Translations under genes and position numbers: made by a program
DNA from: Escherichia phage SP15
Sequence record: AP019559
Length of the DNA: 64,000 nucleotides
Reading direction: 5' to 3' (one strand)
The notes under the pieces: model-generated
The model's input: the letters and a program-made list of their open reading frames with translations, nothing else
What the model was told of the DNA's origin: nothing
The model's database searches: none
Part shown: in pieces, positions 7,661-29,520 of the stretch
Layout: every line of letters starts with the position of its first letter
Numbering within the stretch: the first letter of the stretch is position 1

Positions 7661-7687
7661 GCTTTCAGCCAAAAATTTATATATAAT
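7659..7687 (+). promoter_or_regulatory. T5-type early promoter (TTGCTT, 17 nt, TATAAT) with conserved ATAAATTTGAGAGGAG leader
   Basis: Member of a reiterated promoter cassette; see findings. Confidence 0.6.
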
Positions 7688-14875: not shown

Positions 14876-15092
14876 AAAATGGGAAACAAGGAAGTTTCCA
14901 GTAAAAGAACGCAAAGTTCCTGTTTATGATACTTCGGAGAAGCTATGTAGGGTGGTACCGCATAGATTAGCTGGTATCCCTAACATATCCGAGTGGTTAC
15001 TTAAACAACGGAGGACTAACGTATCTCTTCGCGTAGGGTTTGAGTTAGATAAAGTATATGCTGAACTTTCTTCTTTGCTCAAAGAATCATAA
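14859..15092 (+). CDS. Hypothetical small basic protein
   Basis: ORF overlapping helicase stop; weak RBS. Confidence 0.25.
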   Translation: MTVKNKKWETRKFPVKERKVPVYDTSEKLCRVVPHRLAGIPNISEWLLKQRRTNVSLRVGFELDKVYAELSSLLKES

Positions 15093-15101
15093 AAAATTTA
15101 T

Positions 15102-15130
15102 TTGCTTTCAGGAAAAATTTTCTGTATAAT
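15102..15130 (+). promoter_or_regulatory. Strong early promoter, near-identical to the T5 PN25 promoter as I recall it
   Basis: TCATAAAAAATTTATTTGCTTTCAGGAAAAATTTTCTGTATAATAGATTCATAAATTTGAGAGAGGAG; -35 TTGCTT, 17 nt, -10 TATAAT. Confidence 0.8.
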
Positions 15131-15161
15131 AGATTCATAAATTTGAGAGAGGAGTTTAAAT

Positions 15162-15866
15162 ATGGCTGGTTCTCGCAGAAAGAAACATATCCATGAAATC
15201 CCGGATGAAGTCTTTAAAAAAGTTATAGAGCACCTGGAGAACGGTGGTACTAAGAAAGCAGCATGTGAAATGCTCGGCGTATCATCCAATCCAACTATGG
15301 AAAGGATGATAGAAGAGTGGCAAGACCGGCAGATCCAAGTTGCCGAGATGAAGAAAAAGAAACGCGGTACACTCATTGAAGGCATTGAGTTGGCCAACGT
15401 TATTGAACAGTATCTATCTGGTGATTCCTTTGAGGAGATTGCCGATCGTAATTATCGTTCTGTAGCAATGGTTAAATCTGTTCTGGAACGCTATGGTGCT
15501 CTGCTTCGTTTGAACGATATTGTAGATCCATTGAACCCACCAATTATTCCTGATGATGCTGTAGCAGAAGAATTTGAGGTAGGTGAGCTTGTTTGGGTTC
15601 CTGGATACCAGTGTATCGGTGAAATCAAAAAAGCAATGGATAACCCTGTCGGTTGTTACCGTGTATGGCTTCTATCAGAAGGCAAACAACAGAACGTTCA
15701 TTATATGAATTACGAGCTGGCTTCTGTTAAACATCTGGAAAAGTTAGGGGTTGATGTAAAGTCTCTGGGGTACAAATGGTCCCGGGAAGAAGTTATCACA
15801 CTGATTAACGAAGCTGTTAAGGCTGCCCTGAAACTTGATAAAGAAAAAGGTAAACGTCGTGAGTAG
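15162..15866 (+). CDS. Putative DNA-binding protein with two HTH-like segments
   Basis: 234 aa; N-terminal GGTKKAACEMLGVS and SFEEIADRNYRSVAMVKSVLERYG; immediately downstream of PN25-like promoter. Confidence 0.55.
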   Translation: MAGSRRKKHIHEIPDEVFKKVIEHLENGGTKKAACEMLGVSSNPTMERMIEEWQDRQIQVAEMKKKKRGTLIEGIELANVIEQYLSGDSFEEIADRNYRSVAMVKSVLERYGALLRLNDIVDPLNPPIIPDDAVAEEFEVGELVWVPGYQCIGEIKKAMDNPVGCYRVWLLSEGKQQNVHYMNYELASVKHLEKLGVDVKSLGYKWSREEVITLINEAVKAALKLDKEKGKRRE

Positions 15867-26379: not shown

Positions 26380-26869
26380 TTTCAAATTGCCCGTCTATGC
26401 GTTACGGGCGTTTGTATCAATTGAGCAAGAAGGTGATTATTCCGTAATTACAACAAGATATAATAAATATGTGCTAGATAACAGGAAGTTGCCTGGCACG
26501 TTTTCTCAACGTAGGCTTATTCTATTTGAGAAACGGAAAGAATTACCATACAAGCTCTATCCTATTAGAGGTAGAATATCAATGTTGTCTCAATTAGTTG
26601 GGTCAAAGCGTAACCAATTTATAGATTCTGATGGAAATCTTATTAATTGGAAGAAAACTACGTTCTACGATGTTGTCACCTCTAAAGTTTTGCATTCAGC
26701 TAGAATTTATAATGGAAAATACCAATGCTATGTGGCTAAAGTCCCTTATCCATTTGTATTATCCTATGTTCCAGCTTATATAAGCTATATTCTGGTAAAT
26801 AATAGCCCTGTTATTTATCAAGTCCATCAAGAGGAGCCTGAAATTCCTAGACTTAGAATAAAATTATGA
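26372..26869 (+). CDS. Hypothetical protein
   Basis: 165-aa ORF overlapping both neighbours. Confidence 0.45.
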   Translation: MLNFKLPVYALRAFVSIEQEGDYSVITTRYNKYVLDNRKLPGTFSQRRLILFEKRKELPYKLYPIRGRISMLSQLVGSKRNQFIDSDGNLINWKKTTFYDVVTSKVLHSARIYNGKYQCYVAKVPYPFVLSYVPAYISYILVNNSPVIYQVHQEEPEIPRLRIKL

Positions 26870-28218
26870 AGGTTGTTATATCTAATAAAGCCTATTTCAA
26901 GCCCGATGATGAACTTTGGGATTATTGTAGTAAGCAAACCACTTATCACATAGAGACAATGACTAGTAAATACCCTATTATGTATAAGAATAGTGGTGTT
27001 GTTGCCAAAGAGATTAAGTGGATTCCTATTACGCGTCTGGACTTACTAGATGCTAAAGGAGTAAAATACGAATTAGTCGATAAACGCACATTAGCTCCGG
27101 TAGATATACCAAAACCTAAGTTCAAACTGCGTGAAGAAGATCAGCTTCCAATATATGAAGAATGCGATGATACCTGTATTATTAATGGTAAGCCTGGATT
27201 TGGTAAGACTATTCTAGCCCTTGCACTTGCGTATAAATTTGGCCAGAAAACTTTGGTAATCTGTACGAATACATCCATTCGTGAAATGTGGGCGGCAGAA
27301 GTTCGTAAATGGTTTGGGTTTGAACCAGGCATCATAGGTTCTGGGAAATACAATATTGATCCACCAATTGTAGTCAGTAATATTCAAACAGTGAATAAAC
27401 ATGCGAATAATCTTTCTAAAGTATTTGGTACTGTTATAGTTGATGAAGTTCACCATTGTGTGGCTACAACTTTCACTAACTTCCTAGAAATATCATGTGC
27501 TCGCTATAAAATTGGACTATCCGGCACACTAAAACGAAAAGATGGTTTACAAGTTATGTTCAAAGATTTCTTTGGATATAAGATATTTAGCCCGCCGGTT
27601 AATAATACTGTTGCACCTACAATCCATAGGTACTCCGTGCCTGTTGAGCTATCAGGAAACCAAAACGTGCCGTGGGCATTACGTGCTAACGATGTGTATA
27701 ATCATCCTGAATATCGAGAGACTATTATAAACCTAGCACATTTATATGTGAATATGGGACATAAAGTACTCATTGTAAGTGATAGAACAGAGTTAATCCA
27801 AACAGTACTAGAAGCACTATCTCAGCGAGGAGTCACAACCTATGAGATTATTGGCGCAACCCACTTAGATAACCGATTAAAAATTCAGGAAGATATAGCA
27901 AAAGGTGGCCCTTGTGTACTTGCAGCAGCTCAAAGTATCTTCTCTGAAGGTATTTCCCTTAATGAGCTATCTTGTTTAATAATGGGAAGCCTCATTAATA
28001 ATGAATCTCTCATTGAACAGCTTGCAGGCCGTGTTCAACGTATTGTCGATGGTAAACTCGACCCTATTGTTGTAGATCTAATTATGAAAGGTGGCACTGG
28101 ACTAAGGCAGGCTTCTGGACGGATGGCAGTATATCGTAACAATGGGTGGAAAACTATTACTATGACTCCTGAGAAAGCAGTTCAATTAGCTAAAATTGCA
28201 TTTGGCAACAGCTCATAA
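26866..28218 (+). CDS. SF2 DEAD/DEAH-box ATP-dependent helicase (T5 D10-like)
   Basis: Walker A GKPGFGKT, Walker B VDEVHHC, helicase C-terminal motifs. Confidence 0.8.
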   Translation: MKVVISNKAYFKPDDELWDYCSKQTTYHIETMTSKYPIMYKNSGVVAKEIKWIPITRLDLLDAKGVKYELVDKRTLAPVDIPKPKFKLREEDQLPIYEECDDTCIINGKPGFGKTILALALAYKFGQKTLVICTNTSIREMWAAEVRKWFGFEPGIIGSGKYNIDPPIVVSNIQTVNKHANNLSKVFGTVIVDEVHHCVATTFTNFLEISCARYKIGLSGTLKRKDGLQVMFKDFFGYKIFSPPVNNTVAPTIHRYSVPVELSGNQNVPWALRANDVYNHPEYRETIINLAHLYVNMGHKVLIVSDRTELIQTVLEALSQRGVTTYEIIGATHLDNRLKIQEDIAKGGPCVLAAAQSIFSEGISLNELSCLIMGSLINNESLIEQLAGRVQRIVDGKLDPIVVDLIMKGGTGLRQASGRMAVYRNNGWKTITMTPEKAVQLAKIAFGNSS

Positions 28219-28230
28219 ATGATGTATAAT
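28202..28230 (+). promoter_or_regulatory. Early promoter (TTGGCA, 17 nt, TATAAT), first of a tandem pair
   Basis: Followed by ACATAAATTTGAGAGAGAAAG leader. Confidence 0.5.
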
Positions 28231-28301
28231 ATATACATAAATTTGAGAGAGAAAGTTTCGGATTGATAAGAAAGTCCGAAGCAGAAAAATAAAAATTTTA
28301 G

Positions 28302-28331
28302 TTGCTAAATTCTCTCGAAATCTAGTATAAT
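28302..28331 (+). promoter_or_regulatory. Early promoter (TTGCTA, 18 nt, TATAAT), second of a tandem pair
   Basis: Followed by ACATAAATTCGAGGAGAAAAC leader. Confidence 0.5.
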
Positions 28332-28438
28332 ATATACATAAATTCGAGGAGAAAACAAAAATTAAATTCTTCGATTATGAAAAGCTATACTTACTAGCTA
28401 GAGGAAATTCCGACCTAATTATTAAGTTATTCAAAAGA

Positions 28439-28723
28439 ATGCTTATAGAGCCTGATGCTCACCAATTATTGGTCGGTTCCTCATTCATTTTGAATGAGTC
28501 AACAATAGTTGATAATCCAAATAAATTGTCTAATAGACAACTGGCAGAATATCTAGGAATTTTAAGTCTACGAAATTATGCCGAATACAAGTTTACAAAC
28601 GATCCTAGTTTGAACATACAATATGTTCCAGTATGGATACCACGTTTAGTAATCGACACTAACCCACTAATCGCAATTAACAAATCGAAATTAATCTTTA
28701 AAGAGGAAATAAAATATGGCTAA
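28439..28723 (+). CDS. Hypothetical protein (doubtful)
   Basis: 94-aa ORF without clear RBS. Confidence 0.25.
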   Translation: MLIEPDAHQLLVGSSFILNESTIVDNPNKLSNRQLAEYLGILSLRNYAEYKFTNDPSLNIQYVPVWIPRLVIDTNPLIAINKSKLIFKEEIKYG

Positions 28724-29489
28724 GTCTTGGGGCGAAACTACTGGCGGTTCTAACGATAAAATCGAATTCCTGAAGTTCAACAACGGTATCACTCGTGTTC
28801 GTATCGTTTCTGGTGTTCTTCCACGTTATGTCTATTGGCTGACTAATAAAGAGGGTAACGTAGCTCCTTTCGAATGTCTCCGTTTTAACCGTGACAAAGA
28901 GAGCTTTGTTCGTGGTAAAGCTGATCCAGTTCATGAGATGGGCTTCTTCGAGAAAGAGCTGGATAAAGATGGTAATCGTGTTCCGCTGAAACCGAAGAAA
29001 AACTATATCGCTTTTGTTATCGACCGTTCTGATAACAAACTGAAAGTAATGGAAGTCAAGGCTACTATTCTGAAAGGCATCCAGTCTATCATGAAGCAGT
29101 TGAATCTGGCAACTCCGTTTGATATTGATATTTCTATCGAGAAAAAAGGTAAAGGTTTCGATACTGAGTATGATGTGCAGCAGATTGCTGCTATGCAGTT
29201 CCAGATTAAGCTGCAAGACCCTAACAGTGCGGAATCTAAGCAATATGCTGCGGATGTAGATCTGATCGGTGAAGCTATGTGTGATGAAGATGGCGACATC
29301 ATTAAGTTCGAAAAAGTTCCTTCTCTGGAACAAACCTATCCGGTTCCTACCTATGAAGAGCAGAAAGAAGCAATTCAAGCCTTCATGGAAGGTCGTGAGA
29401 ATAAAGATGATGATGCCAAATCTGGTAATAGCAATGCAGGCTCCCAGAAAGGTATTGACACAGAAGCTGCAAGCGATCTGGACGACTAA
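28716..29489 (+). CDS. Highly expressed early protein with acidic C-terminal tail, possible ssDNA-binding protein
   Basis: Strong RBS AAAGAGGAAAT, host-optimal codons, C-terminus EAASDLDD; function inferred only. Confidence 0.4.
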   Translation: MAKSWGETTGGSNDKIEFLKFNNGITRVRIVSGVLPRYVYWLTNKEGNVAPFECLRFNRDKESFVRGKADPVHEMGFFEKELDKDGNRVPLKPKKNYIAFVIDRSDNKLKVMEVKATILKGIQSIMKQLNLATPFDIDISIEKKGKGFDTEYDVQQIAAMQFQIKLQDPNSAESKQYAADVDLIGEAMCDEDGDIIKFEKVPSLEQTYPVPTYEEQKEAIQAFMEGRENKDDDAKSGNSNAGSQKGIDTEAASDLDD

Positions 29490-29496
29490 TAAATAG

Positions 29497-29520
29497 AGGG
29501 GCTTCGGCCCCTTTCTTTTT
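29497..29520 (+). terminator. Rho-independent terminator
   Basis: Hairpin AGGGGC-TTCG-GCCCCT followed by TTCTTTTT. Confidence 0.75.

Follow-up and report, generated by a model that had tools for sequence, protein, structure and literature searches.

Tandem promoters of the T5 early family, with a conserved hairpin between them, probably precede the D11 operon of a T5-like phage

Background

What is a promoter for when no gene follows it? The question is raised by a short intergenic locus in the window (the whole 64-kb stretch of DNA analysed here), where two near-identical units lie in close succession and the first has no gene of its own. A preliminary description, made from the letters alone, had left two explanations standing for this arrangement, namely that the first unit drives a short non-coding transcript ending at a hairpin between the units, or that a regulatory cassette was duplicated. 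We arrive at a different reading, to which we assign a probability of roughly 0.8: the units would be tandem early promoters of the phage T5 type, 101 bp apart, here called by their T5 names P31A and P31B (Table 1), and the part they share would be the −10 box of that family together with its AT-rich discriminator and its purine-rich initial transcribed sequence (ITS).

Results

Earlier annotation of the locus

By sequence comparison, positions 27900-28800 of the window are 97-99% identical to many T5-like phages, which places the DNA in Tequintavirus, and the intergenic sequence across both units is base for base that of phage T5 itself. As an element, the pair is no different from P31A/P31B of T5, with the same sequence at the same locus between the D10 helicase gene and T5.125/D11, although the window comes from a close T5 relative that is not necessarily T5. 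The helicase gene, the T5.125-family gene and the D11 gene for a single-strand DNA-binding protein (SSB) all lie on the + strand.

The tandem pair is therefore already known from the T5 reference genome, where AY543070 and NC_005859 carry the features 'promoter P31A' (75467-75541, corresponding to 28182-28256 of the window) and 'promoter P31B' (75568-75642, corresponding to 28283-28357). The T5 records disagree on unit 1, which the independent T5 annotation AY587007 lists as 'repeat c copy 7' (TGTATAATATATACATAAATTTGAGAGAG), with unit 2 as 'putative early promoter T5P38'; the AKFV33 record has a promoter feature at unit 2 only, citing the T5 consensus TTGCTT N17-18 TATAATA. The T5 annotation labels P31A and P31B as promoters without stated evidence. 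Promoter names in the T5 record run from P10a to P31 along the genome, and we suspect that 'P31' is a sequential number from an old electron-microscopic promoter map. Our search of the searchable literature found no start-site, 3'-end or transcriptome map covering the P31A/P31B locus; a T5-infection RNA-seq data set exists (PMC12783706), in whose description we saw no start sites.

Two units with the anatomy of T5 early promoters

The repeat itself is as the preliminary description had it. The 20-mer GTATAATATATACATAAATT occurs exactly twice in the window, both times on the + strand (28224-28243 and 28325-28344, 101 nt apart); when up to 3 mismatches are allowed, the window has 5 matches where chance would give 0.08, and a repeat search returns a 31-nt direct repeat (28217-28247 and 28318-28348) of 87% identity at the same spacing. 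In the promoter scan, P31A (TTGGCA-17-TATAAT) agrees with the sigma-70 consensus at 11 of 12 positions and is the top + strand site between 27000 and 30000, and P31B (TTGCTA-18-TATAAT) agrees at 10 of 12.

Scanning for TATAAT, about 6 bases and ATAAATT gave 7 + strand sites in the window, all with a −35 box that is either TTGGCA or of the TTGCT type, most with an A/T-rich tract upstream, and all with a GA-rich run after ATAAATT. Both P31A and P31B have the features by which T5 early promoters are recognised, that is, a −35 box near TTGCTT or TTGACA, a spacer of 17-18 bp and a TATAAT(A) −10 box, and their purine-rich ITS (ATAAATT...GAGAG) is present in seven copies in the window. T5 early promoters reportedly share an ATATT-type discriminator (PMC7472727), to which the ATATAC of both units is a 4/5 match; the discriminators of other family members in the window read ATTTAT, AGATTC, AGATTT and AGTATT. 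Judged by these shared features, the two units belong to the T5 early-promoter family and would be read by host sigma-70 RNA polymerase.

The family member at 15125 we take, from its sequence, to be the classical N25 promoter of T5, which is a model 'escape-limited' strong sigma-70 promoter and the basis of the T5 promoter in pQE vectors. The surrounding stretch (15080-15165) is near-exact N25 (TTGCTT-17-TATAAT AGATTC ATAAATTTGAGAGAGGAG), and the ATG downstream is at 15162. N25 and P31A are alike in TATAAT, in a 6-nt AT-rich discriminator and in the sequence from +1 (ATAAATTTGAGAGAG), and positions +1 to +15 of P31A are those of the N25-like promoter in the window; they differ in the −35 box, which is TTGGCA in P31A and TTGCTT in N25. 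Positions +1 to +11 of N25 are described as comprising 9 AT and 2 GC base pairs (PMC12464699), a composition with which ATAAATTTGAG of P31A agrees by eye. The transcribed region of N25 is reported to act in promoter escape (PMC12464699), and replacement of its positions +3 to +20 to have lowered productive RNA about 10-fold (PMC12464699, citing Kammerer et al. 1986). A unit without an open reading frame can thus still retain an ITS, because the ITS itself belongs to the promoter. Of the earlier label 'promoter-leader', what stands is a sigma-70 promoter plus an initial transcribed region in each unit; on our reading the shared part is no duplicated leader from a lost gene.

The first unit was also correctly described as lacking an open reading frame: none of at least 25 aa with a canonical start follows it, and only TTG frames of 7-9 codons are seen there by eye. 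Where N25 has a Shine-Dalgarno sequence (GGAG) and an ATG about 32 nt past its −10 box, P31A has the hairpin and a second promoter instead. The first long open reading frame begins 28-32 nt past the −10 box in the five other family members, 131 nt past it for P31A and 30 nt past it for P31B; the last value matches the pattern only if the downstream gene begins at the ATT codon at 28361.

Table 1. Positions in the window of the two promoters, the elements around them and the other members of the promoter family
Feature	Position	Strand	Basis or remark
Early-promoter family sites	7682, 15125, 17368, 18815, 28225, 28326, 62348	+	TATAAT-ATAAATT scan
D10-type helicase gene	26866-28218	+	upstream neighbour of the repeated units
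P31A −35 box, TTGGCA	28202-28207	+	within the final codons of the D10 helicase gene
P31A −10 box, TATAAT	28225-28230	+	promoter scan; T5 'promoter P31A'
P31A predicted +1 (A 28237) and ITS, ATAAATTTGAGAGAGAAA	28237-28254	+	homology with N25
Hairpin, 10-bp stem (28255-28264 / 28273-28282), 8-nt loop	28255-28282	+	RNA folding, G.U pairs
A/T-rich tract, AGAAAAATAAAAATTTTAG, UP-element-like	28283-28301	+	about −55 to −37 of P31B
P31B −35 box, TTGCTA	28302-28307	+	promoter scan
P31B −10 box, TATAAT	28326-28331	+	promoter scan; T5 'promoter P31B', 'T5P38'
P31B predicted 23-nt leader (+1 at 28338), Shine-Dalgarno GAGGAG (28346-28351)	28338-28360	+	homology, sequence
T5.125-family gene, 120 aa, ATT start	28361-28723	+	conserved N-terminus, phrog_4258
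D11 single-strand DNA-binding protein gene (T5.126)	28716-29489	+	phrog_1607, E = 7e-106
Terminator-like hairpin, AGAGGGGCTTCGGCCCCTTT then CTTTTT	29495-29514	+	terminator scan

Similarity between the units is confined to the family core

Local duplication of the cassette, one of the two origins first proposed, does not agree with how the similarity is distributed. In the core, P31A is identical to P31B at 23 of 27 positions, to the copy at 7682 also at 23 of 27 and to the N25-like copy, 13 kb away, at 24 of 27, so that P31A is as near to that distant promoter as to its neighbour. In the 47 nt upstream, which hold the −35/spacer halves, P31A and P31B agree at 19 of 47 positions, a background level. 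Copies made by a local tandem event should be closest to each other over the whole unit, and these are not; since the similarity is confined to the family core and the −35/spacer halves are unrelated, a local duplication is not supported.

Two probable promoters for the T5.125-D11 operon

The protein of the T5.125-family gene matches phrog_4258 over residues 2-120 of 120. RefSeq annotates T5.125 from an internal ATG (28439), as a protein of 94 aa, and the 26 N-terminal residues upstream of that ATG are conserved in seven lineages. At the homologous start codon, 6 relatives have ATG (compare AAAAATGAAATTC of Shivani with AAAAATTAAATTC of the window, which has ATT), and in AKFV33 the gene is annotated with an ATA start two codons upstream of the ATT. 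With GAGGAG placed 9 nt upstream, a start at the rare ATT codon 28361 is well supported by sequence comparison. In the P31B transcript (28344-28375), the predicted fold pairs codons 3-5 (UUCUUCGA) with the Shine-Dalgarno sequence (UCGAGGAG) and leaves the ATT in a 15-nt loop. This modelled pairing, together with the weak ATT start, may keep translation of T5.125 low relative to that of D11, which has its own Shine-Dalgarno sequence.

The last 8 nt of the T5.125-family gene are shared with the D11 gene. The site at 29495-29514, 3' of D11, is the next + strand terminator-like site after the hairpin at 28255-28282, and a putative rho-independent terminator is annotated at the homologous place after D11 in both T5 and AKFV33. 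T5.125 and D11 most likely form a compact operon with two stacked promoters, ending at 29495-29514.

Both promoters most likely transcribe the T5.125-family gene and the D11 SSB gene as far as this site. P31B would yield an mRNA with a standard 23-nt leader; transcripts from P31A would differ only in a longer leader of 124 nt, in which the hairpin lies. Read-through of the hairpin is plausible because it lacks a U-tract and a terminator call, and because the first + strand terminator-like site comes after D11. Stacking strong promoters would raise the frequency of initiation, and SSB is presumably needed in stoichiometric amounts; additive output from tandem strong promoters is not guaranteed, however, as they can interfere with each other. 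The hairpin would act in the long P31A leader and also in read-through transcripts from the polymerase-helicase genes. The activity of the promoters in vivo, their start sites, and the read-through and role of the hairpin are what we infer from sequence and conservation.

Promoter number and conservation in related phages

A comparison with related phages, which the preliminary description had suggested for counting the units, finds that one to three tandem promoters precede the T5.125-family/D11 operon across Demerecviridae. Tandem promoters with start-to-start distances of 83-101 nt are present in Proteus phage PM135 (Novosibvirus), Klebsiella phages (Sugarlandvirus), Erwinia phage KEY and Vibrio phages; the counterpart of the P31A −35 box reads TTGCCA in PM135 and TTGCTG in the Klebsiella phages. 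Two IMG/VR loci (L043 and L044) have a single promoter directly before the gene, with its −35 box in the 3' end of the helicase gene like that of P31A.

Three Vibrio loci resembling Pogseptimavirus (L008, L049 and L052) carry three stacked promoters some 250 nt ahead of the T5.125-family gene, and there the A/T tract and the −35 box of the third promoter lie between the arms of an 8-bp inverted repeat (CCGTGTAG ... CTACACGG). At the Klebsiella Sugarlandvirus and Erwinia KEY loci (L005 at about 1340-1360, L006 at about 1255-1270 and L007 at about 1135-1150), the proximal TATAAT lies 4 nt from the T5.125-family ATG (TATAATAATCATG, TATAATAACTATG), a gap that implies either a leaderless mRNA or a translatable message from the upstream promoters only. 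Simple repeats within the promoters also vary in length: TATATATATAC replaces TATATAC in the P31B discriminator of an IMG/VR T5-like locus (L033), which adds 4 nt, and the leader of P31B has one further A at L024.

Between the window (Tequintavirus) and Seafire (Epseptimavirus), a run of 75 nt (28223-28297), the P31A ITS and the hairpin included, is 100% identical by our own count; in the helicase, T5.125 and D11 genes, identity between the same two phages is 86-87%, and at a background of 86.5% the chance of so long a run at any one place is, by our own arithmetic, about 2e-5. On such conservation, P31A is to be regarded as under selection. Full invariance of the 75-nt block exceeds the needs of a promoter alone, so that a promoter would account for only part of its function.

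A strand-specific hairpin that is not a canonical terminator

The hairpin between the units, reported earlier from its arms, is present as TTCGGA-N12-TCCGAA at 28257-28280, a pattern unique in the window, with 0 occurrences expected by chance; no further copies of the hairpin were found in the 64-kb window. As + strand RNA it folds with −14.0 kcal/mol (z = −6.9), and the complementary strand reaches only −5.3 kcal/mol, a strand specificity that is owed to G.U pairs. The A-rich stretch noted with it is there as well and could act as an UP element of P31B; UP elements are marked in T5 promoters in Fig. S5 of PMC7472727.

Immediately 3' of the hairpin comes AGAAAAAUAAAAAUUUUAG (AGAAAAAUAAAAA) rather than a U-tract, and a short U run starts only about 14 nt after the stem, so that the G+C-rich stem-loop followed directly by a U run that marks an intrinsic terminator is not found here. 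The terminator scan makes no call at 28255-28282 but does call the site at 29495-29514. The hairpin is not a canonical terminator. It occupies +19 to +46 of the P31A transcript, beyond the usual contacts of RNA polymerase, and is likely to be an element that works at the RNA level, with leader stability, processing, pausing or a barrier at the 3' end of read-through transcripts as possible roles.

Comparison among relatives adds to this picture. Within the T5/EPS7 clade, sequences are near-invariant at the hairpin. In the Klebsiella phages the 3' arm and the A-tract are kept (AAAGTCCGAAGCAGAAAAATAAAAA) and the 5' arm is relocated (CTTCGGA-AAG-TCCGAAG, with a 3-nt loop), which argues for a hairpin and against a protein site of fixed spacing; the A/T tract is 88% conserved even there. 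RNA folding finds no equivalent hairpin in Proteus PM135 or Erwinia KEY, though tandem promoters are present in both. Of nine inter-promoter segments, five are significantly structured, with folding z scores of about −3.4 to −4.7 (T5, as in the window, −4.3; Epseptimavirus, −4.0; Klebsiella, segment 2, −4.1; PM135-like, −4.7; L056, −3.4), and the four others are not significant. By eye, the 3' arm of several predicted inter-promoter folds overlaps the −35 box of the next promoter; such pairings are seen in the predicted folds of the PM135-like, Klebsiella, L050 and L056 loci. A candidate long-range helix between UUUGAGAGAG (28242-28250) and UUCUCUCGA in the P31B spacer was rejected, as TCCTCCCGA of Epseptimavirus breaks its A-U pairs and the predicted Epseptimavirus fold lacks the helix.

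The hairpin might alternatively belong to the upstream operon, as a weak terminator, pause site or 3'-exonuclease barrier of the polymerase/helicase transcripts, and its place between the promoters would then simply follow from P31A lying within the end of the helicase gene. We hold this for improbable, though not far-fetched, and it is compatible with tandem promoters. Relative to P31B the order is the usual one of gene end, hairpin and promoter, the folding is strand-specific, and a read-through RNA would contain the segment with the most extreme folding score: among 1278 overlapping 101-nt windows of the 64 kb (+ strand), the lowest folding z (−6.8) belongs to that from 28187 (−5.7 for the segment 28187-28300), and the 101-nt window from the P31A +1 ranks 18 in the same series. 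Against this reading, the missing U-tract does not agree with a canonical intrinsic terminator, no hairpin is found at this place in PM135 or KEY, and natural stem substitutions are uninformative on pairing, which among isolates survives in two of four variants (A to G, giving G.U) and is lost in the other two, no more than chance would give.

The first unit as a probable working promoter

If P31B alone were functional, unit 1 could be an inactive or vestigial 'repeat c' copy, for instance the remnant of a lost intervening gene. The disagreement among the records (only a repeat in AY587007, only the second promoter in AKFV33) fits such a history, and so does the position of unit 1 as the sole family member of the seven without a start codon 28-32 nt past its −10 box, with a Shine-Dalgarno-like run decayed to GAGAGAGAAAG and a GA run that varies in length among isolates (in the ITS of P31A it is 2 nt longer or shorter at L025 and L011). 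We nevertheless think a vestige quite unlikely. At 11/12, the −35 box, 17-bp spacer and −10 box of P31A are near consensus and better than those of P31B, and the unit falls within the 75-nt run that is 100% identical between genera whose flanking genes are 86% identical. In Shivani (L002, 2171-2503) and at L034, L040 and L011, the helicase gene and P31A are separated by an inserted gene for an HNH homing endonuclease; these Epseptimavirus/Shivani-like phages retain the sequence from TAAAATTGCATTTGGCAAC on, which the HNH stop codon adjoins, so the −35 region is kept even without coding overlap with the helicase. Phages of Proteus, Klebsiella, Erwinia and Vibrio again have an upstream promoter without an open reading frame, about 100 bp off, and no gene lies between the two units in any relative examined.

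The short non-coding transcript of the preliminary description, an RNA of about 45-65 nt driven by P31A and ending at or just after the hairpin, has a strong promoter without an open reading frame on its side, together with a stable, strand-specific hairpin 19 nt past the predicted start, a promoter-hairpin block invariant between two genera, and the precedent of several 'stable RNAs with unknown functions' that T5 encodes and that are annotated elsewhere in its genome. Yet the terminator that would end it is missing, with neither a U-tract after the stem nor a call by the terminator scan, and an Rfam search (27900-28800, E <= 10) returned nothing beyond meaningless sub-threshold matches; a small RNA gene with a promoter, a terminator and a known family is thus not what the sequence offers. 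The hairpin is also absent from PM135 and KEY despite their tandem promoters, which leaves the idea without support beyond the T5/EPS7/Klebsiella group, and at L043 and L044 the homologous promoter stands directly before the gene. We consider such an RNA very unlikely.

More speculative still, the P31A transcript, the invariant hairpin and the A/T tract could together form a dedicated cis element amid replication genes, either an R-loop or transcription-primed origin, for which T7 phi1.1A/1.1B or T4 oriF would be the likeness, or a regulatory leader RNA of the SSB operon. The thought is kept open by the 100% conservation of the block in two genera and by the recurrence of structured inter-promoter RNAs. 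What resembles an origin here is anatomy only (a promoter without an open reading frame, a purine-rich transcript and an A/T tract); within the 64-kb window, GC skew has no inflection at 28.2 kb, and nothing tested favours an origin specifically. GC skew changes sign twice, near 6 kb and near 34 kb, changes that may follow gene orientation; the first falls where the + strand series of early promoters begins (first member at 7682).

That unit 1 encodes a leader peptide modulating the hairpin (TTG 28263-28292, 9 codons, or TTG 28242-28265, 7 codons) can practically be dismissed, for although by eye a GA-rich run upstream looks like a weak Shine-Dalgarno sequence and TTG 28263 lies within the hairpin, the frames have neither a canonical start codon nor a GGAG core, are not preserved in the Klebsiella, Proteus and Erwinia relatives, where stops and indels differ, and follow a GA run that varies by 2 nt either way among isolates.

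Discussion

Tandem T5 early promoters, the reading we prefer, have counterparts in well-known systems. The P1-P2 promoters of E. coli rrn operons and phi1.1A/phi1.1B of phage T7 are tandem promoters of highly expressed operons, and like P31A/P31B they consist of two strong promoters about 100 bp apart that serve one operon, the upstream one geneless. The likeness has its limits: in rrn operons, P1 and P2 respond differently to growth rate, whereas P31A and P31B share discriminator and ITS; and phi1.1A/phi1.1B, which the phage polymerase reads, also serve T7 as its primary replication origin, a role that for P31A/P31B would be analogy only.

As a discovery the pair has little value, being already annotated in T5 and assembled from parts of one of the best-studied promoter families. 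Its description may still be of use, in that many T5-like genomes annotate one or neither of the promoters and give the T5.125-family gene, whose predicted start in the T5 clade is the rare ATT, a truncated form or a wrong start. A conserved non-coding element is present in the invariant 75 nt, whose strand-specific hairpin lies between the promoters, and the one to three stacked promoters that stand, about 100 bp apart, before the SSB operon across Demerecviridae make up a natural series on promoter cooperation and interference.
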